From contig CAYZSU010000002.1 in NCBI GenBank assembly GCA_964480565.1, forward strand, positions 3,367 through 67,366: a stretch of DNA of 64,000 bases, in the 5' to 3' direction. Below, one piece after another: positions 2,228 to 62,610 of the stretch. This DNA is from an uncultured Myxococcales bacterium. GTDB lineage: Bacteria > UBA10199 > 2-02-FULL-44-16 > JAAZCA01. Under the pieces are notes generated by a model that saw nothing but the letters and a program-made list of their open reading frames with translations, was not told the origin of the DNA and did no database searches. A program made the translations under genes and the position numbers. The first letter of the stretch is position 1. Each line of letters starts with the position of its first letter.

Positions 2228-3182
2228 TTTTTTTATCTGATATCAGAGCCTCTGCTGGCGCTAAATCACGATCTCTAAAAAACTTATCATTAACCGATGT
2301 CATGGCATTCACTTCAGCAGCCACATGCCATGCTTGACTTAACTGTCCTGAAACACCCGCACCCAATGACAATAGATGTTGATAATTGATATTTTGAATA
2401 CTTACTTTTTTGCCTGTACGAAAACCCAGATTCACAGCAATACCCAGTTTAGAATGTGGATAGATATCCAGTGCAGCCTTCATACCACCGGTAATACCTG
2501 CATCACCAGTATAGTGAGTATCGCTACCTGTTGGAACAGTAATAAATGGCATTAATGCCACACCAATGGGTGATTTACATGCGCCTAGCAACTTACTCTT
2601 CAACTCAATGCGCAAATCCCCCACATCAATCTGTGTATTAAGCGATGTAGTTGACCTGTCCAAAGGCGATTTAAATGAATTATATAGTACAAATGGCATA
2701 TCAATGCCCAATTGCAACCACGGCATAATGCCCACCGCAGCGGTTAAATCACTGACCAGTAAATGATCGATTACCCCACGGGCACGAAAGTTACTGCTTT
2801 TTACCTGCATGGGTTTAAATGCATAGGAATGATGCATACCCACTAAAAACTGTTTGGCATACAAACTCTCTGATCCGCTAAGCATGGAATATGATGATGG
2901 ACCAATCACAGGTTGATGGAAAATACCATTAAATGTTTGCGAAGCTGCAAATGCATGGCCATGCATTATTGCAAGCATGCCAAAGGTCAAACAAATGAGA
3001 TTGTTGAAAAGCACCCATCTTCGGTGTTTCCCGCTACACCCGTAATCCTTAACAACTCGCATGGTCGCTCGGCCCACGGATTTACGGGCGCCTTGAATCT
3101 GGGCATTTTTGAATAACCCCACAAATTGTCCATTTTTCAATAGTCCCCAAATGAATAGGATTTTTCGATATGAATATGTCAC
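2124..3182 (-). CDS. Beta-barrel-like N-terminal part of the OmpA-family protein. Its signal-peptide region carries an in-frame MITE insertion; the ancestral start is GTG at 3182 with an AAGAGG Shine-Dalgarno sequence. Alternative internal starts at 3062 (ATG inside the MITE) or 2978.
   Basis: Alternating amphipathic beta-strand pattern (KAALDIYPHSKLGIAVNLGFRTG; LSLGAGVSGQLSQAWHVAAEVNAM). Residues 12-61 are a translation of repeat copy A. The reconstructed pre-insertion N-terminus VTYSYRKILFICLTFGMLAIMHGHAFA|AS is a clean signal peptide. Confidence 0.5.
   Translation of the reverse strand: MTYSYRKILFIWGLLKNGQFVGLFKNAQIQGARKSVGRATMRVVKDYGCSGKHRRWVLFNNLICLTFGMLAIMHGHAFAASQTFNGIFHQPVIGPSSYSMLSGSESLYAKQFLVGMHHSYAFKPMQVKSSNFRARGVIDHLLVSDLTAAVGIMPWLQLGIDMPFVLYNSFKSPLDRSTTSLNTQIDVGDLRIELKSKLLGACKSPIGVALMPFITVPTGSDTHYTGDAGITGGMKAALDIYPHSKLGIAVNLGFRTGKKVSIQNINYQHLLSLGAGVSGQLSQAWHVAAEVNAMTSVNDKFFRDRDLAPAEALISDKKIGIIHGGRGRNVFGLWSEGRKSAWKFGIILSIYD
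2999..3147 (+). mobile_element. MITE-like dispersed repeat, copy A (core type 1). Flanked by a direct duplication CAAATGA (2992-2998 and 3148-3154).
   Basis: Shares GATTGTTGAAAAG-CACCCATCTTCGGTGTTTCCCGCTACACCCG...TCTGGGCATTTTTGAA...CAATAGTCCC with copies at 27861, 31693 and 32744. Termini are inverted; flanks are target-site-duplication-like. Confidence 0.8.
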
Positions 3183-3250
3183 TCAAACCTCTTACTTAAG
3201 GAAAACATATTTTTTTTATCAAATTCACGATTGAAAGACAAGGAATTGCC

Positions 3251-4885
3251 CTAATCTTTCTTTTGATGCATTGATTTCAACTTACCTATTTTCTGCTGAA
3301 TAGTGACGATATGGGTTTTAGCGCTTTTTGTCCTAGATACAATATTTAAAATAGCATCCTTATAATAACGAAGCGCTTCGGAATACTCTTTTTGATGCGC
3401 ATATACATCACCCAAATGATCCAGCACAGCTGCAGACTGCGGTGATAATTGATGTGCTTTTTTCAAATAAACCAATGCCCGCACATAATCGCCCATTTTA
3501 AAATACACCCATCCCAATGAATCGACTATAAAACTATTATTTGGCCGAATCACCATTGCTTTTTTGATCATGGCCAAAGCCTTTTCCAAATGAATATCAT
3601 GTTCCGCATATAAATATCCTACAAAATTCAATGCATCCGCATTATTGGGATTTAATACAAGTACCTGCTGCATCGTTTGCAACGCATTTTCAGATTGATC
3701 GTTTTTTTCATATAACACTGCAAGAAGAACAGCTAAGCGCTCATTGTTAGGTAATTGTTTGCGGCCATTTTTTAATATACCAATACCCTTTTGAAGTTGA
3801 CCACGCCCTTCAAGCAATGCGGATAATAATTCATAGTAATCCACAATATTGGGCTGATTTGCAATGGCGTCATTGAGTGCATCAATGGCCTTTTGAGTTT
3901 GTTTGCTATTTTGATACAAGCTCGCTAAATGCAATCTAGCATCCCTATAAAAACTCGATTGATGCGATATCACCTTCATATGCATAATAGCGTGATCAAT
4001 ATCCTTTCGATTCTCATACAATAAACCCAAGTAAAATCGAATTTTATCCGCTTCCGGATGATCGATTAAAATCGCTTCAAATACCTTTGTGGCATGATCA
4101 TATTGTTTGAGTTCATAATGAATTAATGCCATCCGCAACATGGCCGACAGATTGTCGGGCTCTGATTCCGTTATTATTTTATAGTATGTTAACGCTTTTT
4201 CATATTCTTTATCATGCAGATATATAGTGGCGAGTGCAATTAATGCATTTTTATTTTGTGAATCTACACGCAAAGCTTCTTGATATGCATGCATTGCCAT
4301 GGTTATTTTCTTATCAATCTTCTCATATATATTTCCTAAAAGCACCCAGCCTGCGACATAATCCGGATACTCATTTAAGAGTTGCTTCAATATACGTACT
4401 GCTATTTTATGCTGCCCTAAGTACACATGGGATTGAATTAAAAAAACCGTGGCTTCATGATGATTTGAATTTTTTTTCAAAAATGAGTTAAATATATCAA
4501 TGGCTTTTTTATGTTGATTGGTAGCTGCAAATAACTTCCCTAGCAGCAATATCGCGGGTTTAAGCGATTCATCCAAACCAATCGCATGCTGGCAGGATTC
4601 AATAGCAGCATAGTGTTTTTTAGAAATTGCATCATTTAATGCAGACATATAATAAAAATATGCGGTATTTGGATGTGCATCGATCAAGTCCAATATGATT
4701 TTTTTTGCCTGATTGGATTGCCCACTTTGGCTGAGCAAATCAGCGTGAAGCAACTGATAATAAGGCATTTCATCGGATTCTCTTATCACAGGCCGCGCAT
4801 TTTTTTTACCTGCACAAGATATCATAATTGACATCAGACAGATAGCCATACCCCTAATATGCCATAATTTAAAAAACTGTCTCAT
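3251..4885 (-). CDS. TPR-repeat lipoprotein
   Basis: Multiple 34-aa TPR-like repeats. N-terminus MRQFFKLWHIRGMAICLMSIMISCAGKK has a lipobox (MISC). ATG at 4885 verified (plus-strand cat at 4883-4885). The longer ORF, back to 5014, would overlap tlyA. Confidence 0.6.
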   Translation of the reverse strand: MRQFFKLWHIRGMAICLMSIMISCAGKKNARPVIRESDEMPYYQLLHADLLSQSGQSNQAKKIILDLIDAHPNTAYFYYMSALNDAISKKHYAAIESCQHAIGLDESLKPAILLLGKLFAATNQHKKAIDIFNSFLKKNSNHHEATVFLIQSHVYLGQHKIAVRILKQLLNEYPDYVAGWVLLGNIYEKIDKKITMAMHAYQEALRVDSQNKNALIALATIYLHDKEYEKALTYYKIITESEPDNLSAMLRMALIHYELKQYDHATKVFEAILIDHPEADKIRFYLGLLYENRKDIDHAIMHMKVISHQSSFYRDARLHLASLYQNSKQTQKAIDALNDAIANQPNIVDYYELLSALLEGRGQLQKGIGILKNGRKQLPNNERLAVLLAVLYEKNDQSENALQTMQQVLVLNPNNADALNFVGYLYAEHDIHLEKALAMIKKAMVIRPNNSFIVDSLGWVYFKMGDYVRALVYLKKAHQLSPQSAAVLDHLGDVYAHQKEYSEALRYYKDAILNIVSRTKSAKTHIVTIQQKIGKLKSMHQKKD

Positions 4886-4889
4886 ACCT

Positions 4890-6539: not shown

Positions 6540-6776
6540 TATTTCCTCCAATGGCCATGGGATTTATATCAGAAATACACGCTTGTCCATAAAAATGCTA
6601 GTTTGCCCCAGGACTTTTCGCATTTAAAATTATTACAAAAAACAGCTATTGTGAGGTTTTTGATTGGACAATTGAAATGCATATTTTCTATTTTTAGGAG
6701 ATTTTCGTTGATACTTCCATCGGTAAAAATCGGCAGAGCCTCCCCATCTAACTCACTTTGTTCGCTCAAATCGAGA

Positions 6777-7287: not shown

Positions 7288-9420
7288 TTATGGTGTTATC
7301 TGTAATGTCGTTCCCGGCGTTACTTTGGATGGATCATGCAGTTTATTCCATTTTTGTAATTGCGCAATGCTCACATTATGTTTTCTCGCAATATTCCATA
7401 ATGTATCACCTGCTCGCACTTGATAATACATATTTTGCTCTACCTTATCCGCATCTGCGACCAGTTGATCACGCACAGATGCCAGCTCTAAAGCAGATGA
7501 TTGCTTACCACGGATACGAAGGGACTTGCCTGCACGAACGGATTTGGCATGCCGAATATTATTCCAGACCATCAACTGTTTGATACTCACATTATGCCGA
7601 TTGGCAATACCGCCCAAGGTTTCTCCAGGCTTGACTGTATACTGATAGGATTTAGTTGCAGATATTGTTGATGAGGATATATTATTATCCGCCATGCGCA
7701 CTGATGAACGGCTACTGCGTTGACCGCTCCCCTGTCGTCCCACTTGCTCACCATAGATACGAAGGGACTTGCCTGCACGAACAGATTTTGCATTCCGAAT
7801 ATTATTCCATGCCATCAGCTGTTTAATACTCACATTATGTCGGTTGGCAATACCACCCAATGTCTCTCCAGATTTAATTGTATATTTATAGGACTTACTC
7901 GTATTTCTTTTAGAATTAGCCGTATTCTTTGCAATTGATAGTTGTGGACGAATTTTTATTTTCTGCCCTGCCCGAATGCGTTTTGGATTTTTAATATTAT
8001 TCCATGTCATAATATCCGCGCTAGTCACATGGTACTTTTTAGCAAGGCCTGACAATGTATCCCCGGATTTTAATATATGTATTTTAGACTTTGCTTTGGA
8101 TGATGTATTTGTAGCTATACGCGATGATGAATATATTTTTAATTTCTGGCCCAATCGTACTGTATTTCGTTTATTCAATTTATTCCATTTTTGTAAATTC
8201 GTTAATGAGACATGATATTTCCTGGCAATATGCCCAGCAGTCTCCCCCTTTTTTACACGATGATATACGGCTTGCTGACGTTTGGAAGTGCGCGACCGGC
8301 CATGCGATGCAACCGATGATGGCATTTTCCCATTTAGAGGTATAATTAGTTTTTTTCCCAACTTTAAATGACGATAATTTCGAATGTGGTTGGCACGTGC
8401 AATGGTCTTTACTCCTACATTATATTTTCTAGCAATACCTGATAGTGTATCCCCACGTTTGACACGGTGGTACGCCATGCGAATACGCTTGGACTTAGGC
8501 AATTTGGCATATTTTTGATTAAAAATAGCCGCTGTCCCTTTGGGCAAACGCACTTTATAATTACGCACTGGTGGTGTAATTTTACGATATAAATGCGGGT
8601 TTAGAATAAGAATGTTTTTATTTGTACTACCTGTTAAGTCTGCAATCACACTTAAATCAGTCTGAGTACCCACCATACTCACATCATAATCAAAGGGTGC
8701 TGCATAGTTGATATTTGTAAATCCAAATTTTTCAGGCATTTTTGCAATAATTGCTGCCGCTATATACTTTGGCACATAATTACGGGTTTCCGCACGAAGT
8801 GCACGCTTATGCGCTGCCCACGTCCAAAAATCTTTCACACCTGTCATTTTATATGCTTTGTTAATGCGACCAGGCCCTGCATTATATCCCACCATCGCCA
8901 CATACCAATCGCCATGCTTATCATATAAATCACGGAAAAATCTGGCAGCCGCACGTGTAGACTTATACACGTCTCGGCGTTCATCCACCCAATGACCCAC
9001 TTTTAAATCATAAATACGTGCAGTAGATGCAATAAATTGCCAAAAACCAACTGCGCTCGCATGTGAATAGGCCTGTGAATTGAACCCACTTTCAATCATA
9101 GCAATATATACTAAATCCAGAGGTAATCCTTCTTCTTTTAATATGCTGCGCATAATTGATATATATCGACCTGAACGTTCTAAATATCGTTGAAATGATT
9201 TTCGACCTGGACCTTGGAAATACTCTAACCACGCCACCACACGCTCATTAATAGTAATAGGCATATCAAATTTTGGCAAATATTTTAGATTATGTTCTTT
9301 AATATAACGATGTGAATACTTGGATGATCGTACTTTTGGCGTTTTCAAACAGGAAATACTTCCAACCGCGTAAATAACAACTAGAATGATCAAGAGTGCA
9401 TATCGAAAAGAATGTCGCAT
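7288..9420 (-). CDS. mltD: Membrane-bound lytic murein transglycosylase D-like lipoprotein (SLT domain plus five or six LysM repeats)
   Basis: SLT catalytic region ...ESGFN...VGFWQF.... Repeated LysM modules (YxVKxGDTLxxIAxKYxV...WN). Lipobox GSISC. Start at 9420, so that the ftsZ terminator hairpin (9445-9486) lies upstream of the CDS. Confidence 0.8.
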   Translation of the reverse strand: MRHSFRYALLIILVVIYAVGSISCLKTPKVRSSKYSHRYIKEHNLKYLPKFDMPITINERVVAWLEYFQGPGRKSFQRYLERSGRYISIMRSILKEEGLPLDLVYIAMIESGFNSQAYSHASAVGFWQFIASTARIYDLKVGHWVDERRDVYKSTRAAARFFRDLYDKHGDWYVAMVGYNAGPGRINKAYKMTGVKDFWTWAAHKRALRAETRNYVPKYIAAAIIAKMPEKFGFTNINYAAPFDYDVSMVGTQTDLSVIADLTGSTNKNILILNPHLYRKITPPVRNYKVRLPKGTAAIFNQKYAKLPKSKRIRMAYHRVKRGDTLSGIARKYNVGVKTIARANHIRNYRHLKLGKKLIIPLNGKMPSSVASHGRSRTSKRQQAVYHRVKKGETAGHIARKYHVSLTNLQKWNKLNKRNTVRLGQKLKIYSSSRIATNTSSKAKSKIHILKSGDTLSGLAKKYHVTSADIMTWNNIKNPKRIRAGQKIKIRPQLSIAKNTANSKRNTSKSYKYTIKSGETLGGIANRHNVSIKQLMAWNNIRNAKSVRAGKSLRIYGEQVGRQGSGQRSSRSSVRMADNNISSSTISATKSYQYTVKPGETLGGIANRHNVSIKQLMVWNNIRHAKSVRAGKSLRIRGKQSSALELASVRDQLVADADKVEQNMYYQVRAGDTLWNIARKHNVSIAQLQKWNKLHDPSKVTPGTTLQITP

Positions 9421-9435
9421 GACGACCTCATTAGT

Positions 9436-9486
9436 AAAAACTATATCGCACAACAATAATAACTACTATCATTACTGCTGTGCGAT
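9436..9486 (-). terminator. Candidate terminator after ftsZ (end of the dcw operon)
   Basis: Inverted repeat ATCGCACAaCAa...tgCTGTGCGAT (9445-9486), 5 nt after the ftsZ stop. Followed on the minus strand by TTTTTA. Confidence 0.4.
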
Positions 9487-14079: not shown

Positions 14080-15003
14080 TCATTTGCCAACTATCTTCAA
14101 ACGTGGCTCCAATACAATCCCTGCATACTGCTTAATGCGATCTCTGACCAAATTCATCAAGACGACAATATGATTGGCTGTGGCCTGACCTTCATTGATA
14201 ATAAAATTTCCATGCGTATCACTGACTCGTGCACCACCAATACGTATTCCGCATAAATTCATATCGTCAATAAGTGCCGCAACATTACTGCGTCCTACAT
14301 TTTGAAATAGAGGACCAATTGAAATAACACCATCCTCTAGCAATGCTTTCTTTTTTTCTGTTGCTAAACAAATATTTTTTTTCACTGTCGCTGAATCACT
14401 TTTTTTAAGCATTACACAAACATGAGACAAATATGATGTCTGTGGTATTTTAAGACGCTTATCATCGAACTTCAGTGATTTTCTTCTAATCGAAATTTCT
14501 TTACCCGCTCTATTTATTACACTCACTCCCGTTACATAGGTATCTATTTTTTCTGAATCACTAATATCCACCTTTTGCATCACAGCACCACCAATTGACC
14601 CCGCATACAATGCCAAACCTTCAATACCTGTTAATGCATGTGTATCACAAAAATTTAATACATCCGAAATTTTCATGCTCGATGTAATACGAAGACTGAC
14701 AAAATCATCGCCATTTTCAATAATATGACAATCACTATCCAAATCCTCCAAATCCACTACCAAACCATTTAATCCGCCATCCCGTATAATGGACTTGGAT
14801 CCATAGCAGATAAAATGATAATCAATAGCATGCTCATTGGCCCAGCGTACAGCGGATTTCACATCATCTATGGTCTTAACTCGAATATAACTTTCTGCAC
14901 ATCCACCAATATGTGTGACTGTCTTTTCAGACATTGGCACATTAAATGACACATCATTAGCCACAAACAATGTTGACAAGGATCGCTTTTGATCACGAGT
15001 CAT
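14080..15003 (-). CDS. murB: UDP-N-acetylenolpyruvoylglucosamine reductase MurB. The start is chosen at the ATG at 15003; the longer ORF back to 15234 overlaps the murC 3' end.
   Basis: FAD-binding region THIGGCAESYIRV and a MurB C-terminal domain. A 308-aa product matches typical MurB length. Confidence 0.8.
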   Translation of the reverse strand: MTRDQKRSLSTLFVANDVSFNVPMSEKTVTHIGGCAESYIRVKTIDDVKSAVRWANEHAIDYHFICYGSKSIIRDGGLNGLVVDLEDLDSDCHIIENGDDFVSLRITSSMKISDVLNFCDTHALTGIEGLALYAGSIGGAVMQKVDISDSEKIDTYVTGVSVINRAGKEISIRRKSLKFDDKRLKIPQTSYLSHVCVMLKKSDSATVKKNICLATEKKKALLEDGVISIGPLFQNVGRSNVAALIDDMNLCGIRIGGARVSDTHGNFIINEGQATANHIVVLMNLVRDRIKQYAGIVLEPRLKIVGK

Positions 15004-26201: not shown

Positions 26202-26585
26202 TCAGTTTATCTTTCCTTTTTTCTCAACATTTGTTTTGACGTATACAATTTCATCACCCAAAGGCAGACGCATATAATAATGTTTCTTTGCAATTTTCTC
26301 TAATCGCTCTGGTGATTTTAATTCCGCTACTTTCGCCTGTAATTTATTTTTTTGCTCAGATAATTCATGCACTTCTTTTCTAAGCTGACTAACACCATAA
26401 CCCAACTGAATCATCTGAATTCGCATCCAAACAAAGAGCATGGCAATACTCACAGCAACAATAATTAAACTCACTACTTGGCGAATATGTTTGCGACGTT
26501 TAGCCAGATTTTTTTGTGCAACCGGCTGTTTTCGCACAACACTAAATGATGAATACCCAGTACTTGAACGACCAACATCCATCAT
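26202..26585 (-). CDS. ftsL: Cell division protein FtsL
   Basis: Small bitopic protein with a coiled-coil region (QLRKEVHELSEQKNKLQAKVAEL). Position between rsmH and ftsI. Confidence 0.7.
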   Translation of the reverse strand: MMDVGRSSTGYSSFSVVRKQPVAQKNLAKRRKHIRQVVSLIIVAVSIAMLFVWMRIQMIQLGYGVSQLRKEVHELSEQKNKLQAKVAELKSPERLEKIAKKHYYMRLPLGDEIVYVKTNVEKKGKIN

Positions 26586-27469
26586 ACACCCCTTACCAAC
26601 ACTCGCATCTTTGCACTACGCGATCTAGGATTTTGAGCAATCTCATCATCACCTGCACAAATAATTTTTTTATATGCCAAATGATAGTCTTCATCCTTAG
26701 CCAATCGTTTAAATGTATGCTTTACCAGTCGATCTTCCAATGAATGATAGCTAATCATAATCATTTTACCACTCACTGCTAACAACTTTGGAGCTGTATT
26801 TAGAAGTATATTTATCTGCGCTAATTCCTGATTAACTTCAATACGAATAGCCTGGAATGTACGTGTTGCAGGATGAATCCGACCATAGCGCATCTTCGGT
26901 GGATAGCATGCTGCAATAATTTGAGATAATACCAATGTACTATCAATTGGACGCGCCTTACAGATGGCACGTGCAATACGCCTAGCAAATCGGTCCTGCC
27001 CATAGTCTTTAATGATAATAGCCAGCGCATCCTCTTCCATTTCATTAATCACAATACCTGCATGATATGCATCCGATTGATTCATACGCATATCCAGCGG
27101 TGCATCTTTTTGAAAACTAAATCCACGCTTTGCAGTATCCAATTGAAAGCTAGACACACCAAAATCTGCCAATATCCCTACTATATTTAATTGTCTAAGA
27201 TCAGGTAATGATGACACATCTTTCATATCTGCATGAATGGCATTAAATCGATTGCCAAAACATTTAAGACGTTCAGATGCTGCTATAATTGCATCCATAT
27301 CCCTATCAATCCCAACAATATTAATACCTGGCATTGACTCCAGCAATGCATGACTATGCCCGCCACCACCCAATGTCACATCCAATATACTACCCGCCAT
27401 ATTTATGGATGAAAATTCGTCTAGCACTTCCTTGCACAGTACCGGCACATGATAGGATTCGTCGATCAC
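26582..27469 (-). CDS. rsmH: 16S rRNA (cytosine1402-N4)-methyltransferase RsmH/MraW
   Basis: HVPVLCKEVL N-terminus; SAM-binding DVTLGGGGHS. Confidence 0.9.
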   Translation of the reverse strand: MIDESYHVPVLCKEVLDEFSSINMAGSILDVTLGGGGHSHALLESMPGINIVGIDRDMDAIIAASERLKCFGNRFNAIHADMKDVSSLPDLRQLNIVGILADFGVSSFQLDTAKRGFSFQKDAPLDMRMNQSDAYHAGIVINEMEEDALAIIIKDYGQDRFARRIARAICKARPIDSTLVLSQIIAACYPPKMRYGRIHPATRTFQAIRIEVNQELAQINILLNTAPKLLAVSGKMIMISYHSLEDRLVKHTFKRLAKDEDYHLAYKKIICAGDDEIAQNPRSRSAKMRVLVRGV

Positions 27470-27846
27470 TGCATGACCTCTGGCCTATAATCGCCAGCAA
27501 AACTAATCAATGCCTCTTCTACGGATGTATATAAGTTCTCATTCCATCCCATAGCCTGAAAAATATAGCGAATATAATCACTGACTGCGGCCATCTTTAA
27601 ATCACCGCCATCACATTTAAATGCAATAATTTGATCGACTATCTTACGAACTAACTTGTAGTCAAGATGCGTCAGTCCAGAGAAATTAAGCACTACATTA
27701 TTCTGTTCACACTGAGCCAGAGACATAAATACATTTTCCAGCACATGTATATTATGACTCGACAATTCTCCATTTACGCCAACAATAGATACATCATGAC
27801 ATCTGGTAACTTCAAACATATCTCTCTCCCCAAAGATCCCTCGCAA
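27466..27846 (-). CDS. STAS-domain protein (anti-sigma-factor-antagonist-like), inserted between mraZ and rsmH
   Basis: SpoIIAA-like pattern (VSIVGVNGELSSHNIHVLEN...VVLNFSGLTHLDYKLVRKIVDQI). 4-nt overlap with rsmH. Confidence 0.55.
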   Translation of the reverse strand: MRGIFGERDMFEVTRCHDVSIVGVNGELSSHNIHVLENVFMSLAQCEQNNVVLNFSGLTHLDYKLVRKIVDQIIAFKCDGGDLKMAAVSDYIRYIFQAMGWNENLYTSVEEALISFAGDYRPEVMQ

Positions 27847-27860
27847 TTATTTCAATAGTG

Positions 27861-28009
27861 GGGCTGTTGAAAAATGCCCATCTTCGGTGTTTCCCGCTAC
27901 ACCCGCAATCCTCACGTACTCGCATGTACGCTCCGGTTACGGGTTTGCGGAAGCCTAGAATCTGGGCATTTTTGAACAACCCCTAAAATTGCTATTTCTC
28001 AACAGTCCC
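27861..28009 (+). mobile_element. MITE-like dispersed repeat, copy B (core type 1). Perfect 6-bp direct duplication ATAGTG (27855-27860 and 28010-28015).
   Basis: GGGCTGTTGAAAAATGCCCATCTTCGGTGTTTCCCGCTACACCCGCAATCC...TCTGGGCATTTTTGAACAACCCCTAAAATTGCTATTTCTCAACAGTCCC. Termini are mutual reverse complements. Confidence 0.85.
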
Positions 28010-28058
28010 ATAGTGAAAGCGCCTAAAAAACATCCCTTCCTTAGGCCAGTCTGCCCAC

Positions 28059-28499
28059 TTACAATCCCAAATCAGCCAAGCGACTACCTAAATTTTCTAA
28101 TGTACTTTGCGCATCATTAAATACAAGATCCCAACGATCTTTGGCCCAAATCTCAAATCGTTTTGTCATGCCCACAATAATGACATCACGCGACATTCCA
28201 GCATAATCACGCAATGATGCGGGAATGATAATCCGACCCTGCTTATCAATAGGGCATTCCACTGCAGCGGATATAAATACGCGCTGCAATGCTTTAACTT
28301 CTTCCATGAATTGCGGCAATGCGCTGACTTTTCCTTCCAACACCTGCCATTCACTCACTGGATAAGCCCATAAACATTGATCAAAATTGGTAATAATCAC
28401 ACGCTCATCATAATTGGAGCCCAATGTATCGCGAAAACGCGATGGCACTGATAATCGCCCTTTTGCATCAATTTGATGATTATATCGCCCTCGAAACAT
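28059..28499 (-). CDS. mraZ: Transcriptional regulator MraZ
   Basis: Duplicated MraZ/SpoVT-AbrB-like halves (IDAKGRLSVPSRFR; IDKQGRIIIPASLR). Confidence 0.9.
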   Translation of the reverse strand: MFRGRYNHQIDAKGRLSVPSRFRDTLGSNYDERVIITNFDQCLWAYPVSEWQVLEGKVSALPQFMEEVKALQRVFISAAVECPIDKQGRIIIPASLRDYAGMSRDVIIVGMTKRFEIWAKDRWDLVFNDAQSTLENLGSRLADLGL

Positions 28500-31155: not shown

Positions 31156-31665
31156 ATGACACGTACTTGGCTTATCGCACTCACAGCACTTATCACAACT
31201 TGCATGGTATCACCTCTTGTATATGCATTAAATGACTGCTACCATTCAGGGGAACAATTACTCATACATGATAATAGTACAGGACATGTTCGTTATGAAC
31301 GTACTGAGACAATTTATCAGCAACCTGATAATTTTTTACTCGCCACAATTGAAGATGAACGTATTATTTTCACACCCATTGTTGAAGTTTTCAAAAATGA
31401 GCTTACCAATCGTTTACTTCGCATTGAATTATCCACTGGCCATAGTTTGATGATCACAGAATCCCATCCAGTATGGGTGAATGACACATTTATCACAGCT
31501 GGCACATTAAGCATCGATGATACATTAACCAGTATTACTGGCGAATCCGTAAGCATCATGGATGTCAAGGTGATGAATTATGATGGATTTGTATATAATT
31601 TTGCTATCAATGGTTCAGGCATACAAATCAGCGATGGCATCCGCCTAGGCGGATCAGACATATAA
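31156..31665 (+). CDS. Small secreted protein consisting essentially of a Hint (Hedgehog/intein / bacterial intein-like) domain
   Basis: Strong AGGAG Shine-Dalgarno sequence. Signal peptide MTRTWLIALTALITTCMVSPLVYA. Hint-like blocks: LTGHSLMITESHPVWV, AGTLSIDDTLTSITGESVSI and the terminal VYNF. Confidence 0.45.
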   Translation: MTRTWLIALTALITTCMVSPLVYALNDCYHSGEQLLIHDNSTGHVRYERTETIYQQPDNFLLATIEDERIIFTPIVEVFKNELTNRLLRIELSTGHSLMITESHPVWVNDTFITAGTLSIDDTLTSITGESVSIMDVKVMNYDGFVYNFAINGSGIQISDGIRLGGSDI

Positions 31666-31692
31666 AACCAACTCAACAACTAATTACACTAT

Positions 31693-31843
31693 GGGACTGG
31701 TGAAAAATAGCAATTTGTGGGGTTGTTCAAAAATGTCCAGATTCAAGGCCTCCCGCAAACTCGTAACCGGAGCGTACATGCGAGTACGTGAGGATTGCGA
31801 GTGTAGCGGGAAACACAGAAGATGGGCGTTTTTCAACAACCCC
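31693..31843 (-). mobile_element. MITE-like dispersed repeat, copy C (core type 1, inverted orientation). Direct duplication (C)ACTAT at 31687-31692 and 31843/31844-31848.
   Basis: Reverse complement of copy B along its whole length (GGGACTGGTGAAAAATAGCAATTTGTGGGGTTGTTCAAAAATGTCCAGATTC...GAAGATGGGCGTTTTTCAACAACCC). Confidence 0.8.
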
Positions 31844-31868
31844 ACTATCAATACACTATGATTTCACA

Positions 31869-31910: not shown

Positions 31911-32040
31911 TCCAGATGGCATCCGTCTAATTTGGAATTTTCTGTATGCGCCCTCATTGAAATTTGCTGTTTAGCGAAGTGACAGCGTAATGAGTGTTAA
32001 TGCAATTATTACATTGATCAAGCGCTTATGCATTACAGAA
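31911..32040 (+). repeat. Internal fragment of the long (mosaic) MITE variant; related to the core of the element at 62391-62610
   Basis: Shares ...TGCGCCCTCATTGAAATTTGCTGTTTAGCGAAGTGACAGCGTAATGAGTGTT...GATCAAGCGCTTATGCATTAC with 62450-62555. Confidence 0.6.
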
Positions 32041-32130: not shown

Positions 32131-32217
32131 GGGGAGGTGGCCGAGTGGCTGAAGGCGGCACCCTGCTAAGGTGTTATACGGGAGACCGTATCGAGGGTTC
32201 AAATCCCTCCCTCTCCG
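32131..32217 (+). tRNA. tRNA-Ser (anticodon GCU), long variable arm. CCA not encoded.
   Basis: Folded by hand. Acceptor stem GGGGAGG/CCTCTCC (one G-U pair). D-arm GCCGAGTGGCTGAAGGC. Anticodon loop CTGCTAA. T-arm GAGGGTTCAAATCCCTC. Discriminator G. Confidence 0.9.
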
Positions 32218-32225
32218 CAACAAAA

Positions 32226-32354: not shown

Positions 32355-33565
32355 ATGAATAAAAAGGGACTCCAAAAAATCGGATACGATGAACGAATAG
32401 ACAGTGTAAGCGGTGAATACCTTCAGGACGGGTTTACGATTGCCAGAATAATCGAGGTAAAAATAGCTATACCGTATCAAATGGTCGTCATGAGATGCCG
32501 GCAGAACTCTGCGGTAAATTTCTATTTGATATAGAGAATACAAGCAATTTTCCGACTGTCGGTGACTGGGTAACAATACAGGCCCTTTCTGATAATGCAC
32601 TTGCCCTTATCCACTCTGTCTTGCCGCGCAAGACGCTATTGAAGTGTAAAGAAGCTGGCAGAAAAATAGCATTCCAGCTGATTGCTGCCAATATAGACAT
32701 CGGATTAATCGTACAACCAGCAGATCAGATTAACCTGCTGGATGGGACTGTTGAAAAACGCCCATCTTCGGTGTTGTTCAGCAAATTCAATTCAGTTACA
32801 TACTCGTATGTATGCGCCTTCATTGAATTTGCTGTCCGCCTAGAATCTGGGCATTTTTGAACAGCCCCTAAAATACCTATTTCTCAACAGTCCCTGGATA
32901 GGTATTGCGCGATGCTATAATGAGAGCGATATACAACCTATAGCGGTATTTACGAAAAAAGATCTGATCCCACCTGATGAGATCTCATCCATACAAAATG
33001 ACCTTGCCATGTTACACATGCAATATGTGTTTATCAGCAATGCCGTCAAAGGTGGAGAAACGGATCTATCCAAAAATCTCGTTTCAGGTAAAACATATTG
33101 TTTACTTGGCAAATCCGGAGTCGGCAAGACATCCCTTCTCAATCGATTGCTTCATAGTGATGAGTTCAAAGTAAATAATGTTCGAAAAAAAGATGGAAAA
33201 GGAAAGCATACCACTACAAAACGACAGCTGGTGTGTCTTGATTCCGGCAGCATCTTCATTGATACACCAGGCATGCGAGAACTTGGAAATTTTAAAATAA
33301 ACAAAGGCATCGATGAAACGTTTGAAGAGTTCTCTTTGCTAGCATTATCCTGTCGCTTCAAAAATTGTACCCATAACCACGAAGAGGGATGCGCAGTTCT
33401 TGACGCTATCTCACGGGGAAAATCGAACAAACTAGATATGATAATTTTTTAAAGCTCAAACGAGAGGCAGAATTCTATGACATGTCATATCATGAAAAGC
33501 GCCATAAGGATAAATCCTTTGGAAAAATGATAAAACAGTACAAAAAATTTAAAAATCAGCAATAG
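32355..33565 (+). pseudogene. rsgA: rsgA (ribosome small-subunit-dependent GTPase A) pseudogene, split by MITE copy D and at least three frameshifts
   Basis: RsgA blocks recovered in three different frames: OB domain (...CGKFLFDI...PTVGDWV), IAANIDIGLIV / LDRY / IAVFTKKDL, G domain (GKSGVGKTSLLN, GKGKHTTT, DTPG), zinc finger (CRFKNCTHNHEEGCAV) and tail RYDNFLKLKRE. Confidence 0.75.
32744..32893 (+). mobile_element. MITE-like dispersed repeat, copy D (core type 2), inserted inside rsgA. Direct duplication (C)TGGAT at 32738-32743 and 32894-32899.
   Basis: GGGACTGTTGAAAAACGCCCATCTTCGGTGTTGTTCAG...TCTGGGCATTTTTGAACAGCCCCTAAAATACCTATTTCTCAACAGTCC. Same termini as copies A-C but a different core. 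Confidence 0.8.
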
Positions 33566-34786: not shown

Positions 34787-35476
34787 TTAATCTTTTTTCA
34801 TAATGAATAAATAATTAAATCCGCGCAAATAAAAATTGCCCTTCACCGCCTCATCCAAAAAATTCTTTCGTTTGAGTTTTTTATTATGGCGCACCACAGA
34901 AACAATATCGAGTGCCCGGAAGTATTTTTGTAATATTCCAAACAACTCAAAACCAATAGGTACAAACCCTTTTTTATTTTGATAGGTGTCGGACACATAC
35001 AATGCCATACAGCGCTTAGGCCGCATGATACGGTGAATTTCAGCAATCACCCGATGCATGGATTTAAAATAGTCCACCTCAAATGCAGATAGTTTACCAA
35101 TACATCGCTTATCATCGGAATAATCAATATGCGTGGAATATGGCGGATCGATAAATACAAAATCCGCTTTTTCATCCTCTAAAGGTAGCTTTCTTGCATC
35201 GGATCGAAAAATATCCTTTCGCGTGGGATTTAAGTCATAGCCCAATGCGCGCCGATTTAAGTCCCTAGCCACATCCAATGTCGTCCCGCTGCCACACATG
35301 GGATCCACGATTAAATCTTTTTTTCTTGTATAACGATTTAACAAGTTCCAAATAATATAGGATGGTGTTGCTCCTTCATAGTCTTTACTACCCTGTATTT
35401 CCCCACCATAATGTTGAGAAGGATAATCCCACAAAGTGGTACCATGCATGGGCACATTGTTTCTAGTATTATTCAT
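34787..35476 (-). CDS. Small SAM-dependent nucleic-acid methyltransferase (N6-adenine / N2-guanine amino-methyltransferase family; UPF0020-like)
   Basis: Motif I LIVDPMCGSGTTLDVA and motif IV FVFIDPPYS. No adjacent restriction endonuclease. Confidence 0.55.
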   Translation of the reverse strand: MNNTRNNVPMHGTTLWDYPSQHYGGEIQGSKDYEGATPSYIIWNLLNRYTRKKDLIVDPMCGSGTTLDVARDLNRRALGYDLNPTRKDIFRSDARKLPLEDEKADFVFIDPPYSTHIDYSDDKRCIGKLSAFEVDYFKSMHRVIAEIHRIMRPKRCMALYVSDTYQNKKGFVPIGFELFGILQKYFRALDIVSVVRHNKKLKRKNFLDEAVKGNFYLRGFNYLFIMKKD

Positions 35477-42668: not shown

Positions 42669-42748
42669 CAGTACAATTATCATTTTTTCTTGCCAAAAAA
42701 TCTCCATAGTCTATGACTCAAGAAACGACGAATAACGATGGAGAAACT

Positions 42749-43828
42749 ATGAACACTCATTATGCATGGATTGGCATTATTATCGCAATATTATGCAGCG
42801 TAACAGCATGCAATAGTGATAAAATTTTAGGAGATCAATCACGTATTGCAGGTACTAATAAAGGTTATCAAGAAAATGACAAATATCAATATGCAAAATC
42901 CTTATATGAGCAAGAGCAATATGCAGAAGCACTGGATTCATTTATAGAACTCGGGCACATATATCAAAAAAATGCGACTATTTTTAACTATATCGGCTTA
43001 TGCTACTATCATCTGGATAATTACGATCACGCATTAAAAAATTATAATCGCGCTAGCAGCTTATCACCCTTTTATGCAACACCGCTTCACAATATGGGGG
43101 TAATTTACCTTGAAAAAAATAATTATGAAACAGCCCTTGAGTATTTTTCAAAAGCAATTGCATGTGAAAAAGAAGATGATCCTTATACAGGAACTTATAT
43201 ATTGCGTGCGCGCGTTTTTTATTACTTGGAACAGTCTGTTAATGCACTCTCGGATTTAAGCACAGCAATTGAATTAGACCCAACATCCATACACGCCTAT
43301 GCATCACGTGCTGGCATATATCGACGCATGGGAGATTTTAACTCCGCACTCAATGATGCAAATACAATTATTCAAATGGATGATACGGAGATTGATGGTT
43401 ATATTTCCAGGGCATGGATCTATGCCAGCATGGATGATATTGATCAAGCAATCGATGAATTTGATATTGTTTACTCACATGCATCACCCAGTAAAATCCC
43501 AGTTCACAAATTGGCGCTTGTTGAAATGTTGATCATATTCAATCACTATGACAAAGCAATAGAGCAATTATTGTCACTTGAGCAAGAAAGCAACTTAGCT
43601 GAGAAAATAAACATTTTAATCAACTATCATCACGCCATACTTGCAAAAGTACAAAATAAAGACACAACACCATATGATCAATATTTAAATGATATGGCGA
43701 CAACCCCCATTACTCTTCACTGGAACTTTCATCTTATTGAAGAATGGTTAGACACTGTAAACTTACCAGAACACACCATTGACTATATTCGCGACAAAAC
43801 AGAGTGGATGCAGCATAAATTTTACTAG
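42749..43828 (+). CDS. TPR-repeat lipoprotein
   Basis: Lipobox ILCSVTAC. Several TPR units. GGAG Shine-Dalgarno sequence upstream of the ATG at 42749. Confidence 0.55.
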   Translation: MNTHYAWIGIIIAILCSVTACNSDKILGDQSRIAGTNKGYQENDKYQYAKSLYEQEQYAEALDSFIELGHIYQKNATIFNYIGLCYYHLDNYDHALKNYNRASSLSPFYATPLHNMGVIYLEKNNYETALEYFSKAIACEKEDDPYTGTYILRARVFYYLEQSVNALSDLSTAIELDPTSIHAYASRAGIYRRMGDFNSALNDANTIIQMDDTEIDGYISRAWIYASMDDIDQAIDEFDIVYSHASPSKIPVHKLALVEMLIIFNHYDKAIEQLLSLEQESNLAEKINILINYHHAILAKVQNKDTTPYDQYLNDMATTPITLHWNFHLIEEWLDTVNLPEHTIDYIRDKTEWMQHKFY

Positions 43829-44040
43829 GGCGTGTCCTCAATTCGTTTAAGAATCCACTAAATGCGTATAAATAGGCAAAAAAAGAAATTAATTCCCTAA
43901 TGCCATACATTTTTTGTCATCATCGGACTTGATCCGATGATCCATGAAACAACTGTAAACACTGGATTATCGGGTCAAGCCCGATAATGACAGATATTTA
44001 GATGTTCAATTGAGGATACGCCTTAAACCATCACTTAAAA

Positions 44041-53394: not shown

Positions 53395-53507
53395 TAATAA
53401 GTTCAATAAAGTATTATTCTAACTGATACAATACTCAATTGAATTTATTCCCAACTCAGCAGATGGGTCATTTTTTAGCCCCCATAATGCGTCAGGGGAT
53501 AACAAGT

Positions 53508-54686
53508 ATGCATTCCCAAACCTCATCATTTTCTGTACAACCCTTAAAAACGCGACACCGTAAAAAGAAAACACTATTTCCTTTTTTACCAGAGCAAGTT
53601 TGGGTGGATCGAAATATAGTATCACATCCACAAACCATCCGTATTCTCAATCAATTACAAGATGCAGAAATAGACATCGTTGATAATATTCGTTCATTAA
53701 AAACACCCGCAAGCCTCAATATAGCCAAAAAACAACTTGTTCTCACTGAACACAAAGGGCATGCCTTTAAAGAATGCCAGGGTATCACTCCCAACCACCT
53801 GTGCTGTAATTACCGCACATTGGACTTAGTATCTGGCTGTCCCATGGATTGCAGTTATTGCATTTTGCAATCCTATCTAGCAAACAACCCCATCACCACT
53901 GTATATGTGAATTTGGAACAAATTCTCGACCAAGTGGCAAGCTTTCTAAAGTCAAACAAGGGTACCCATTTTCGTATTGGCACAGGTGAATTAGGAGATA
54001 GCCTCGCATTAGATCCAATCATCGATTATGCGAGTATTTTAATTCCCTTTTTTGCACAGCAAGACAATGCTGTATTAGAATTAAAGACAAAAACAAATTT
54101 TGTCGATCATATCCTAAAATTACGCCATCGCAATCGAACCATTATTGCATGGTCGATAAATACACCTGATTATATTCAAACAGAAGAAAGTCATACTGCC
54201 AGCTTAGAAAAACGGATTGAAGCGGCACAAAAAGTCATTCAAGCAGGATATCGTGTGGCATTTCACTTTGACCCCATTTTTATACTTAAGGACATTGATA
54301 CTGAGATGGCGGCATATCAAGATGTCATTGCCACTATATTCGAGCATATTGATCCACAGTATATTGCCTGGATCAGCTTAGGGCTACTTCGCTATCCAAA
54401 AAATTTACCTCAAATCGCAGAAAAACGATTTCCAAATACCCGTATTTATACGGGCGAACTCGTACCATCGGATTCAAAAGTCAGGTATTTGCGATTTATT
54501 CGTGAACACGCATATAAATTACTTTGGAATACCTTTCAAAAATATATTACCACCAACAAACTATACCTTTGCATGGAAACTCACACAGTTTGGCAAAAAG
54601 TAGATACATCCATTAACAGCAATGAATGCATTGATAAACGACTGTGCACACAGGAAAATGTTTTGTTTGATTTTAAAAATTTTTAG
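53508..54686 (+). CDS. Spore-photoproduct-lyase-family radical SAM protein (SplB-like)
   Basis: CxxxCxxC cluster VSGCPMDCSYCILQSY. Blocks YVNLEQILDQ and KRIEAAQKVIQAGYRVAFHFDPIF align closely with Bacillus SplB. The alternative start at 53439 is less likely. Confidence 0.65.
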   Translation: MHSQTSSFSVQPLKTRHRKKKTLFPFLPEQVWVDRNIVSHPQTIRILNQLQDAEIDIVDNIRSLKTPASLNIAKKQLVLTEHKGHAFKECQGITPNHLCCNYRTLDLVSGCPMDCSYCILQSYLANNPITTVYVNLEQILDQVASFLKSNKGTHFRIGTGELGDSLALDPIIDYASILIPFFAQQDNAVLELKTKTNFVDHILKLRHRNRTIIAWSINTPDYIQTEESHTASLEKRIEAAQKVIQAGYRVAFHFDPIFILKDIDTEMAAYQDVIATIFEHIDPQYIAWISLGLLRYPKNLPQIAEKRFPNTRIYTGELVPSDSKVRYLRFIREHAYKLLWNTFQKYITTNKLYLCMETHTVWQKVDTSINSNECIDKRLCTQENVLFDFKNF

Positions 54687-54702
54687 ATAATGGGATTGCC
54701 AT

Positions 54703-54726
54703 CAAAATGCCCATCTTCGGTGTTTC
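54703..54726 (+). repeat. Solo fragment of the MITE left terminus
   Basis: CAAAATGCCCATCTTCGGTGTTTC matches the left end of copies A and B. Confidence 0.5.
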
Positions 54727-59982: not shown

Positions 59983-60082
59983 TCAATAAATTATCATCAA
60001 TACAGCAATTATTTGATCTATACCCATATAAAAAAAGCCCAAGACAGATTGATTGCTGCCTTGGACTTTTCTAGCCAACAAT

Positions 60083-60526
60083 TTATTTTTTTACAACTGA
60101 AACTTTAATATTGCCGGACACCTCTGAATGTAAACGTACTGTTACATCATAGTTTCCTATTTCCTTTAAGGGTGATTCCATGCGAATTTTATGACGATCC
60201 ACATCCACACCTTGCTTGCTCAGCATACTCGCAATATCACTGCTCGTTACGGAACCAAAAAGTTTTCCTTCATCACCAGATTCACGTTCCAATGATATAG
60301 AAATACCTTTTAATTTCTTAGCAATACTTTCTGCAGCAATTTTTACCTTTTGCTGTTTTGCAGCAACAACGCGCTTATTATGCGCCAATTGTTTCATATT
60401 ACCTTGATCAGCAATCACTGCTTTCTCATTTGGAAGTAAAAAATTACGGCCATAGCCATCTTTTACAGTGACAATATCACCTGCATCTCCCAAATTTGGA
60501 ATATCTTCTTGTAAAATAACTTGCAT
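60083..60526 (-). CDS. rplI: 50S ribosomal protein L9
   Basis: MQVILQEDIPNLGDAGDIVTVKDGYGRNFLLP. Confidence 0.9.
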   Translation of the reverse strand: MQVILQEDIPNLGDAGDIVTVKDGYGRNFLLPNEKAVIADQGNMKQLAHNKRVVAAKQQKVKIAAESIAKKLKGISISLERESGDEGKLFGSVTSSDIASMLSKQGVDVDRHKIRMESPLKEIGNYDVTVRLHSEVSGNIKVSVVKK

Positions 60527-60540
60527 ACTATCCTCCTAAA

Positions 60541-61563: not shown

Positions 61564-61583
61564 TTTTTTATCTCACCATATAT

Positions 61584-61835
61584 CTACAGCAATGGTAGCT
61601 GCGTTGCTGTAAATGGAATAATTGCTAATACGCGTGCACGTTTAATCGCAATAGTAACTTGACCTTGATGATAGCGGCAATTACCTGTAATACGTCTGGG
61701 TATGATTTTACCGCGCTCAGTCAAATATGGTTTTAAGACCTTGGCATCTTTGTAATCAATAGTTAAATCTTTTTCAGAACAAAATCGGCAACAACGACCG
61801 CGTGCATTCTTATGATTTTTCTTTTTGAATGACAT
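61584..61835 (-). CDS. rpsR: 30S ribosomal protein S18
   Basis: ...CRFCSEK...[26 protein letters not shown]... Confidence 0.9.
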
Positions 61836-62312
61836 TTATGCCTCCTTACTTTCTAACTCAGCAACAGCTTTGGGACGTATTTCAGAAGTAGTTTCTTCTT
61901 TTTTAACGTCATTGGTGCTATCGCTCATTTTTTTTGCACTTACATTCACAGCACTTGTTTCCACTGCATCAGCAGCCTCACCTTTGGCTGCAATTTCTGT
62001 CTGACGTACATTGACATCCACTGTTTCTGCTTTAACAACTGTTAAAAAACGCAATACTGTTTCATCCAAACGAAACATGCGTTCAAGTTGATTTACCACT
62101 TGTGTATTGGCAGCTGCATAGTTGATGCAGGTATACACACCCTTATTTTTCTTATTGATGGGATATGCAAGTGATTTTTGCCCCATACTGCGCGCATAAA
62201 ACAAATGCCCATCATGTTGCTTAATCAAGCCTGCAACCTTATCCTTCATGTCGGATTTTTCCTGCTCAGATAAATTAGGGGTGGTAATTAAAACAGTCTC
62301 ATACTCTCTCAT
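61836..62312 (-). CDS. rpsF: 30S ribosomal protein S6 with acidic C-terminal extension
   Basis: MREYETVLI... S6 fold. AGGAGG Shine-Dalgarno sequence 5 nt upstream. Confidence 0.85.
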   Translation of the reverse strand: MREYETVLITTPNLSEQEKSDMKDKVAGLIKQHDGHLFYARSMGQKSLAYPINKKNKGVYTCINYAAANTQVVNQLERMFRLDETVLRFLTVVKAETVDVNVRQTEIAAKGEAADAVETSAVNVSAKKMSDSTNDVKKEETTSEIRPKAVAELESKEA

Positions 62313-62390
62313 AGATCCTCCTTCCGGGTCTTAAAAATAAGCTCTGGGCCAATCCCAGAACTAAGGAGACTGATAAGTCTTTAATTTAAT

Positions 62391-62610
62391 GGGTTTTTTT
62401 AAAAACGCCCATCATCAGTGTTATTCAGTAAATTCAATTCAGTAGCATATTCTTATGGTTGCGCTCTCATTGAATTTTCTGTTTAGCGATGTGACAACCT
62501 GAGTGTTTGCATTCGCAAATAGCCAAGCTGATCAAGCGCTTATGCATTACTGACAGTGAAAATATAATAGTCGCTGTCTGCTTAAAACCTGGATATTTTT
62601 GAACAGTTCC
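62391..62610 (+). mobile_element. Long mosaic MITE variant (copy F). It has the type-2 left end plus a ~75-bp extra core module, and a truncated/divergent right end that abuts the pth stop codon.
   Basis: GGGTTTTTTTAAAAACGCCCATCATCAGTGTTATTCAG... matches copy D. The middle matches 31911-32040. The end is ...GGATATTTTTGAACAG. Confidence 0.65.

Follow-up and report, generated by a model that had tools for sequence, protein, structure and literature searches.

Within a contiguous stretch of 64,000 nucleotides from an uncultured Myxococcales bacterium (contig CAYZSU010000002.1, positions 3,367 to 67,366; here called the window) there are a split rsgA gene, an odd N-terminal extension of a secreted protein, an insert of 150 bp in the dcw operon and a lengthened spacer between pth and rpsF. 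All four are explained by copies of a single family of repeats, and the question raised by this locus is what kind of sequence that family is. The best explanation, to which we assign a probability of about 80%, is that the repeats are MITEs (transposable elements of the miniature, inverted-repeat kind), a non-autonomous mobile family with a long hairpin. A first-pass annotation of the window had suggested non-autonomous transposition, and this reading held in every test that was run (inverted repeats, duplications and empty sites). The elements are short and non-coding, carry terminal inverted repeats and variable duplications, and are represented by both occupied and empty sites. The family occurs widely and has been active recently; it seems to prefer stop codons, and at the gene ends where it inserts a long hairpin is left behind. 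Copies outside the window were collected from JGI metagenomes with the inner right motif of the element, ATCTGGRCATTTTTGAAYARCC, used as an exact 22-mer. At least 120 family loci were found in this way, and the family counts given below rest on these loci.

Evidence for mobility

Each of the four full copies in the window (A to D, Table 1) is bounded by a short direct repeat. The first-pass annotation had put these duplications at 5-7 bp. They are real, but their length is exactly 5 nt in all four copies; the versions of 6-7 bp are too long because the added bases are ambiguous with the element's own ends. In the metagenomes, duplications were examined in 49 non-redundant copies with a recognisable tail, and the expectation was obtained by random re-pairing of left and right flanks. 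Matching flanks of at least 3 nt were present in 22 of the 49 copies, against 3.4 expected, and 14 of those 22 are duplications of exactly 4 nt. The duplicated sequence varies by copy (TTAG, CTAA, TTAA, CTAT, CAAG, TTGA, TCAG) and is therefore duplicated target rather than element sequence. Main-family duplications are 4 bp long and usually YTAR-like (TTAG, CTAA, TTAA). For tail-less copies the evidence is weak: matching duplications are present in 5 of 37 cases, against 0.7 expected, an excess that is partly explained by an A-rich spacer.

A comparison of empty sites in relatives, suggested together with the first-pass reading, gave a clean empty site at spoT with a single copy of the repeat, and this decisive case demonstrates that the element is mobile. 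In locus L052 the element lies at the end of this gene in the arrangement GATC-CTAA-[151-nt element]-CTAA-AGCAGAAGCAGGG, where the first TAA is the spoT stop codon. The site is empty in L133 (GATCCTGAGCAGAAGCAGGG), whose SpoT is 97% identical and whose flanks are otherwise near-identical to those of L052. It is also empty, with an intact target (GATCCTAAAGCAGAGG), in L135 (SpoT 92%), where GATCCTAAAGCAG stands against GATC-CTAA-[element]-CTAA-AGCAG in L052. The spoT stop codon is likewise free of an insertion in four further loci (L134, L136, L130 and L132). In L129 (SpoT 88%) a different, much-diverged member of the family occupies this stop codon (L129 12143-12310; L052 2790-2940). Since the L129 copy is unlike that of L052 and four closer relatives are empty, it is most simply explained by a second, independent insertion, and the spoT stop codon appears to be a recurrent insertion hotspot. 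Clean occupied and empty pairs of this kind could serve as strain markers.

The same observations bear on the proposal that the shared sequence is not mobile at all, but a vertically inherited conserved gene, cis-regulatory leader or unannotated RNA gene. Such inheritance would agree with the very high sequence conservation across many metagenomes and with the consistent position of the copies beside gene ends. The genes flanking the copies are, however, unrelated to one another (RuvB, TruA, MurA, SpoT, ABC transporters and others), close relatives differ in whether a site is occupied, and copies interrupt both rsgA and a signal peptide in the window. Neither an Rfam match nor a conserved reading frame argues for a gene. 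In a search against Rfam 15 at the gathering thresholds of its families, only tRNA-Ser matched in the window, and no match with E up to 1 overlapped an element in three family loci. No coding frame is maintained: hairpin length varies from 123 to 126 nt without being kept to multiples of 3, and among 70 copies a given frame is open in as few as 2 and in no more than 50. We consider vertical inheritance extremely unlikely; the empty site in L133 and L135 and the unrelated flanking genes refute it for practical purposes. Read-through of stop codons into an open frame of 51 codons was also rejected, as the length varies by non-multiples of 3 and this frame is open in 39 of 70 copies. A match to group II intron domain V/VI (RF00029, 49.9 bits) at 1569-1644 of L084 lies about 4.5 kb from the copy and is unrelated to it.

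Repeat copies in the window

The copies of the window are listed in Table 1. All those described in the first-pass annotation (A, B, C, D, F, G and a solo end placed near 54703) are present, with boundaries that are the same or shifted by 1-3 nt. Full copies measure 149-151 bp, and members of the family with nested modules reach about 305 bp. The window lineage holds an unusually dense set, with four full copies, one long variant and two remnants per 64 kb, and no further full copies were found in the window by covariance model. Copies A and B are 83% identical over 127 nt, and B and C are 94% identical over 99 nt and 89% identical over 70 nt; B and C, at 94% identity, are two young copies. 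The right end of D matches B at 95% over 57 nt, and the left part of F matches D at 82% over 94 nt. What copy F and fragment G have in common is the D-type core's 3' half, together with an additional module that ends in GATCAAGCGCTTATGCATTAC.

These similarities are far from chance. The 26-nt left terminus occurs four times in the window at up to 3 mismatches, against 0.00 expected from 100 dinucleotide-preserving shuffles of the window, and for the inner right motif of 21 nt there are five occurrences where 0.01 would be expected. Repeat detection recovers the copies as direct-repeat families D2-D4, D6 and D7 and as inverted pairs I1-I4. Three others, D1, D5 and D8 (7366-8454), are not mobile repeats; they correspond to six LysM domains repeated within a murein transglycosylase of 722 amino acids with SLT and LysM domains, encoded by the open reading frame (ORF) at 7288-9456.

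Table 1. Members of the repeat family in the window, and the gene split by copy D. Boundaries follow the family-wide definition, with a 15-nt terminus at each end; scores are from the covariance model.
Feature	Coordinates	Strand	Score (bits)	Flanking duplication	Remarks
Copy A	2997..3147	+	71.5	CAAAT 2992-2996 / 3148-3152	Most divergent full copy; 2999-3147 if the repeat is read as the 7-bp CAAATGA
Copy B	27860..28009	+	98.3	ATAGT 27855-27859 / 28010-28014	
Copy C	31693..31843	-	99.2	ACTAT 31688-31692 / 31844-31848 (+ strand)	Inverted; flanks are ATAGT when read in the element's orientation
Copy D	32744..32894	+	89.1	TGGAT 32739-32743 / 32895-32899	AT-rich core variant
Copy F	62391..62619	+			Long variant: degenerate left terminus, D-type core, extra module of ~100 nt, truncated tail; inner right terminus ends at 62610
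Fragment G	31940..32035	+			3' half of D/F-type core and F-type module, without termini; upstream of tRNA-Ser (32131-32218)
Solo left terminus	54692..54726	+			Degenerate; last 23 nt (54704-54726) 100% identical to B, weaker similarity back to 54692; starts 6 nt past the end of ORF 53439-54686
rsgA pseudogene	32400..33452	+			Target of D; N-terminal ORF 32495-32860, GTPase ORF 33009-33452

Structure of the element

When folded as RNA, a check that the first-pass annotation had recommended, each full copy in the window gives a single long imperfect hairpin of ~124 nt followed by an unpaired tail of ~25 nt. The first 15 nt of the element form a terminus, reading CAGGCTGTTGAAAAA in the main family and GGG(G/A)CTGTTGAAAAA in the window, and are at the same time the 5' foot of the hairpin; a further form of the terminus is GGGRCTGTTGAAAAA. 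In the window the left terminus GGG(G/A)CTGTTGAAAAA(C/T)GCCCATCTTCGG pairs with an inner right segment, TCTGGGCATTTTTGAACA(A/G)CCCC. The tail ends in 15 nt, TTT(C/T)TCAACAGTCCC, in which the first 15 nt of the element recur in inverted form a second time, and with a better match. It is accordingly the left terminus and the end of the tail that make up the true terminal inverted repeats (CAGGCTGTTGAAAAA and GAGCCTGTTGAAAAA in the consensus; GGG(G/A)CTGTTGA(A/G)AAA in the window). Where one shared right terminus had been described there are thus two terminus-like sequences. The outer is the real inverted repeat; the inner closes the hairpin.

The copies had also been described as carrying modular cores. 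Extra modules are indeed present in F and G, but the two cores of the window are homologous rather than unrelated modules. Both have the same apex, CGTAC-loop-GTACG (CATAC-loop-GTATG in D), and paired changes along the stem, and they are thus diverged versions of one hairpin. Covariation was counted for a fixed structure on 73 sequences of the family. Standard pairs are formed in 92.8% of cells, compared with 37-41% when the partners are slid by 1-3 columns. Eighteen pairs have changed on both sides, against 10.4 +/- 1.6 in shuffles, and 111 cells carry double changes, against 27.5; none of 500 shuffles reached either observed value. The predicted hairpin is thus supported by covariation. Across the family the loop at the apex is hypervariable, subfamilies differ by covarying changes in the stem, and the tail is less conserved than the hairpin.

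The two strands of the element are not equivalent. In 73 of 74 copies the reverse strand, opposite to that drawn here, folds more stably as RNA (mean -62.0 versus -50.1 kcal/mol), and the five G.U sites of the consensus all lie on that more stable strand. As the copies inherit these five sites, the asymmetry amounts to about a 1-in-16 observation (p about 0.06), and derived variants show a mild excess only (61 G.U versus 38 A.C). The result is suggestive, not conclusive. It would be expected if the element moved as single-stranded DNA by an HUH enzyme (IS200/IS605 or RAYT-like), in the manner of REP or PATE elements. The orientation of the long window copies, of which four of five point the same way under a uniform GC skew, could be taken in the same sense. 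HUH transposition gives no target duplication, however, while here 4- to 5-mers match within a copy and vary between copies, and the empty site has a single one. Moreover, Y1 and RAYT genes do not recur in the vicinity of copies, the hairpin exceeds those of REP or IS200 elements 3-5 times in length, and the asymmetry goes back to five ancestral sites. Movement by an HUH enzyme is accordingly judged very improbable.

Distribution and variants outside the window

The family loci listed were recovered from samples of wetland, peat, lake sediment, groundwater, sludge and digesters, on contigs of 39-65% GC (median 57%). They mostly hold one copy each and have the whole architecture, with the consensus CAGGCTGTTGAAAAACGCCCATCTGCTGCGTTTCCCTCATCCTTCGCCGTTCAACGTACC-loop-GTACGCCTCACGGCTCAGGATTTCGGGGGCCTTGCATCTGGACATTTTTGAACAGCCTG-nAAAAGAGCCTTTTTCAACAGGCTC bounded on either side by TTAG. 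The core type of the window is present in some metagenome copies, for example in L053 (42% GC). SpoT of L052 is 86% identical to that of Deltaproteobacteria bacterium RBG_16_58_17 and 83% identical to that of a Syntrophus sp. metagenome-assembled genome (MAG), so that at least one host of the family is Syntrophus-like. The window makes up most of a metagenome scaffold of 68 kb. Seven of its proteins were looked up in a set of 15 billion sequences, and each is the sole member of its cluster at 90% identity. Homologues of Pth reach no more than 53% identity, and the named close ones are from MAGs labelled bacterium, Bdellovibrionales, Pseudomonadota or Thermodesulfobacteriota. The host therefore belongs to a poorly sampled lineage of 39% GC.

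Many metagenome copies hold small nested hairpins at the apex or in the 3' arm. Since loci with matching flanks differ by such modules (L044 and L047, L056 and L083, L062 and L109), modularity is a general property of the family. One mini-hairpin module of ~30 nt, CCCC(C)GG.AGCGGGATTTCG.AA.GCTCAAC, occurs at a fixed point of the 3' arm in six loci (L116, L008, L015, L035, L036 and L047). It is the sole difference between L044 and L047, and is tandemly repeated four times in L116 (about 14146-14413). In L007, L094, L109 and L114 the apical loop is replaced or lengthened by another nested hairpin, TCCGGGGACACGTTCCGATCCCTTTGGGC...GTCCCCGA, which is absent from L062, the matching-flank partner of L109.

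Searches of other collections were largely negative. The element was not found in plasmid records or in viral contigs, and a scan of GTDB genomes with the left terminus in its window form turned up one chance match and nothing else; it falls within an inositol-monophosphatase-like gene of a single MAG. A six-frame translation of the element gave only 6 matches at E <=0.001 in a set of 5.8 billion proteins, with a long query and a huge database. Public gene calls run the element into the ends of proteins (P0008-P0013: PpiC/SurA-like, LysM, histidine kinase, MurA and OstA-like), and protein databases thereby acquire spurious terminal extensions.

Stop codons and target choice

The position of the copies relative to stop codons was examined in 79 non-redundant copies, counting ORFs of at least 80 codons that read toward the element and end within a few nt of it. 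A stop codon lies at the left terminus in 32 of 79 copies (TAG in 16, TAA in 11 and TGA in 5), with a gap of zero in 19. The same arrangement is found at the right end in 8 of 79, where the boundary is uncertain for tail-less copies. In tailed copies only, stop codons abut the left end in 11 cases and the right end in 6; the excess at the left comes mainly from tail-less copies (20 of 36). Ten upstream ORFs were checked. Nine had Pfam matches, and seven of these extend almost to the C-terminus of the protein, stopping between a few and a dozen residues away (RuvB, altronate dehydratase, ABC-2 permease, TruA, MurA, Ski2-like helicase and SpoT). The genes upstream of the copies are thus housekeeping genes of full length. 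Gene pairs around the copies are convergent in 19 of 61 cases and divergent in 10 of 61.

We read the bias toward stop codons as a target preference combined with the loss of harmful insertions. YTAR-like targets contain TAG or TAA, so that the target duplication rebuilds the stop codon on insertion, and insertions in coding sequence would mostly be lost. An orientation-dependent benefit for old copies is possible. Once inserted, the element may also act on transcripts. On both of its strands a GC-rich stem is preceded by a run of A5 and followed by one of T5 (GAAAAA-stem-TTTTT), a design that could serve as a 3'-end hairpin or a bidirectional terminator, and a simple terminator scan flags only a small sub-hairpin of the element. 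With this terminator-like design and the bias to gene 3' ends and convergent spacers, an effect at the RNA level comparable to those of ERIC, Correia and SPRITE is plausible: the hairpin may terminate transcripts, protect their 3' ends or be processed by RNase III. If the hairpin does affect termination or mRNA decay, the family would provide a ready-made rewiring of 3'-end processing in anaerobic sediment bacteria (Syntrophus relatives).

These features raise the possibility that the element is primarily a structured RNA useful to the host, a mobile and orientation-dependent 3'-end hairpin or bidirectional terminator that is selected behind stop codons, with mobility as its means of spread. 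Besides the terminator-like runs on both strands and the covariation-supported hairpin, this would account for the lower conservation of the tail, which is needed for transposition only, and for the excess of convergent over divergent gene pairs. It would also suit the tail-less, presumably older copies, of which 20 of 36 adjoin the stop codon of an upstream gene in the same orientation. In pairs of loci with matching flanks, moreover, the elements are 96-99% identical while the flanks are 72-85% identical. This last contrast was first read as purifying selection, and was downgraded in view of the L129 copy, the empty sites and the bias of the 22-mer. The conserved pairs were ascertained by an exact 22-mer, and the spoT stop codon was apparently hit twice independently (L052, L129) while close relatives are empty; parallel recent insertion at a re-used site can therefore mimic conservation and explain the difference between element and flanks. 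A terminator, furthermore, requires structure and not 95% sequence identity, some copies lie inside operons where termination would harm (B in the window; L028 and L064), and four of the five window copies are antisense to the orientation favoured elsewhere. We therefore regard a primarily host-useful RNA as possible, at clearly less than even odds. A more specific proposal is a mobile 3'-end RNA module that lands specifically on stop codons, rebuilds the stop, installs a hairpin or terminator and has spread across deeply divergent lineages. The two dissimilar copies at spoT, the 19 of 79 copies that are gap-free and the bias of tail-less copies to one orientation all bear on this proposal, which we hold to be doubtful.

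Search for a transposase

The first-pass annotation had noted that no transposase is present in the window, and our Pfam scans agree: no transposase domain was found in essentially all sizeable ORFs of the window, several of which have no Pfam match of any kind. Neither the window, about 730 kb of family loci, plasmid records nor viral contigs yielded an autonomous element with the termini of the family, and in the family loci no left and right termini lie more than 300 nt apart, as would mark a full-length insertion sequence (IS). Clustering of the ORFs near copies revealed no recurrent partner protein family. Two protein families that seemed to recur were rejected, being translations of the element itself, and the rest are generic ABC transporters and histidine kinases. 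Where copies are paired, the genes that separate them are of ordinary kinds (CdaA, DctM, CO-dehydrogenase subunits, radical SAM, ExbB/TonB) and include no transposases.

We suppose that the copies are acted on by a DDE transposase making staggered cuts of 4-5 bp, for which IS701- or IS5-like enzymes are candidates; the window branch would be served by a related but distinct enzyme. Several points weigh against the MITE interpretation. As neither a transposase nor an autonomous element was found, the step of mobilisation in trans has to be inferred. The strand asymmetry in folding is not predicted by a simple double-strand cut-and-paste mechanism. About half of the tailed copies and most of the tail-less ones have no matching duplication, which fits decay without proving it. 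Lastly, the duplications differ in length, being 4 bp in the main family and 5 bp in the window lineage (four of four full copies), so that two related enzymes would be needed.

Comparison with known elements

The family belongs to a well-known class, that of MITE families such as Correia, ERIC, RUP, SPRITE and Chunjie. No description of the exact element was found in the searchable literature, which does not extend to supplements and subscription journals. In its behaviour the family resembles MITEs of the ERIC, Correia, RUP and SPRITE type; noteworthy in it are the double right terminus, the very wide host range and the adjacency to stop codons. The palindromic elements of Rickettsia are likewise hairpin repeats that may sit in frame in coding genes; they are not known outside Rickettsia and are not known to have clear duplications. 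Copy A resembles them in lying in frame in a signal peptide, whereas most copies of the family are intergenic.

The IS5 group of the IS5 family duplicates a 4-bp YTAR target, and IS701-type transposases are DDE enzymes lacking the YREK motif. Elements of the IS701 family generate target duplications of exactly 4 bp (PMC2266710). The 4-bp duplications of the main family would fit both groups, while the 5 bp of the window branch do not, and the window terminus fits the published IS701 end consensus (---YACT-Y--YR) only partly (PMC2266710). Neither a transposase of the IS701 or IS5 type nor a full-length element with family termini was found in the loci examined.

Among the MITEs, the ERIC or IRU elements of Enterobacteriaceae and Vibrio, 127-bp imperfect palindromes, are similar to the family in size and in forming a single long imperfect hairpin. 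As they are generally described, and in PMC3184786, they also share with it a location in intergenic, transcribed DNA, strong conservation from species to species, lengthened variants produced by internal insertions at fixed points, and occasional copies inside ORFs. The family nevertheless differs from them, and its sequence has no obvious resemblance to the ERIC consensus. It has an extra tail with a second terminus, its hosts are Syntrophus-like and other environmental lineages, and its 4- to 5-bp, YTAR-like duplications differ from the TA reported for ERICs of Yersinia. The Correia elements of Neisseria and the SPRITE and RUP elements of Streptococcus pneumoniae resemble the family in size (100-160 bp), terminal inverted repeats, RNA hairpins, location at gene ends and the ability to hold terminator-like or promoter-like signals, as is commonly held and as set out in PMC10969869 and PMC3049150. 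They differ in sequence, the host range of the family is much wider, adjacency to stop codons sets it apart, and Correia duplicates TA.

The deltaproteobacterial MITE Chunjie of Geobacter uraniireducens shares with the family very stable hairpins and operon insertions that are not always disruptive, according to PMC3184786. Chunjie is 178-235 bp long and AT-rich, with 21-bp inverted repeats and 9-bp duplications (ibid.). Identity of the two was rejected, as the family has elements of about 150 bp, 15-nt termini and duplications of 4-5 bp. REP or BIME sequences with RAYT (palindromes of 20-40 nt, GTAG-type, no duplication, Y1) were ruled out by the hairpin of ~124 nt, the variable duplications and the lack of a recurrent neighbour. 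Integron attC sites (RYYYAAC / GTTRRRY, one-way arrays) were ruled out because the loci mostly have one copy amid housekeeping flanks and the termini do not fit.

Insertion sites and neighbouring genes in the window

Copy D lies inside the conserved LDRY motif of rsgA, where the upstream frame stops at ...ADQINLLD. Excision of D with one TGGAT rejoins LLDRY (motif NLLDRY), and the RsgA reconstructed in this way, with one missing base restored, aligns without gaps across the junction to solved RsgA structures (NLLDRYIARC versus NLIDRYLIAA in 6h4d). The insertion had been taken as consequential. Its location is as described, but its effect is tempered by two further disruptions of the frame: a deletion of 1 nt a few bases past D (DRY, then loss of frame) and a second frameshift near the N-terminus (ARIIEVK and NSYTVSNG in different frames). 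These remain when D is set aside; rsgA is therefore a decayed pseudogene, and the insertion may be as much a consequence as a cause of its decay.

Copy A lies, as had been noted, within a signal-peptide region, that of ORF 2124-3182 (minus strand), and is in frame and without a stop codon. An ATG inside the copy would give MRVVKDYGCSGKHRRWVLFNNLICLTFGMLAIMHGHAFA, which resembles a usable signal peptide. The label of outer-membrane protein given to this ORF is unverified, because it has no Pfam match.

Copy B is inside the dcw operon, again in agreement with the first reading, and lies between mraZ (28059-28499, minus) and a gene with a STAS domain, upstream of the remaining dcw genes. The latter gene (27466-27846, minus; anti-sigma-antagonist-like) is an unusual addition to an otherwise canonical dcw order, and sits between mraZ and ORF 26582-27469, which is taken as rsmH by its position. 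A putative sigma-70-like site, a match to the consensus only, is present at 27846-27873 (minus; TTTTCA, 16 nt, TG-AATAAT). Its -35 is inside the left terminus of B and its -10 in the flank, and it points toward the STAS and dcw genes; such a site could offset the polarity of the insertion.

Copy C starts 28 nt downstream of ORF 31156-31665, whose match to pretoxin-HINT is weak (E of 6e-06) and falls just short of the Pfam cut-off. The copy in L005 also neighbours a Hint-like protein, probably by coincidence. The hairpin end of copy F adjoins the stop codon of pth (62611-62613, minus), and the last two pth codons and the stop lie within the remnant of its tail. The spacer between pth and rpsF is 298 nt in the window, with F, compared with 82 and 137 nt in two distant relatives that share the gene order L25-pth-rpsF-rpsR-DUF2232-rplI-dnaB, and no copies of the family were found in about 20 kb of each relative.

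Two observations in the window concern other sequences. The ORF at 34787-35476 (minus) matches only positions 141-219 of 221, the C-terminal third, of an N6/N4 DNA methylase profile, and is probably a truncated gene or pseudogene. Downstream of ORF 42713-43828, at 43918-43989, are two adjacent small hairpins, CATCGGACTTGATCCGATG and TATCGGGTCAAGCCCGATA, bracketed by TGTCA...TGACA. They may represent a second, unrelated family of small repeats; a similar small palindrome, TGTCATTGCCCGGCTTGACCGGGCAATCC, adjoins the family copy in L037.

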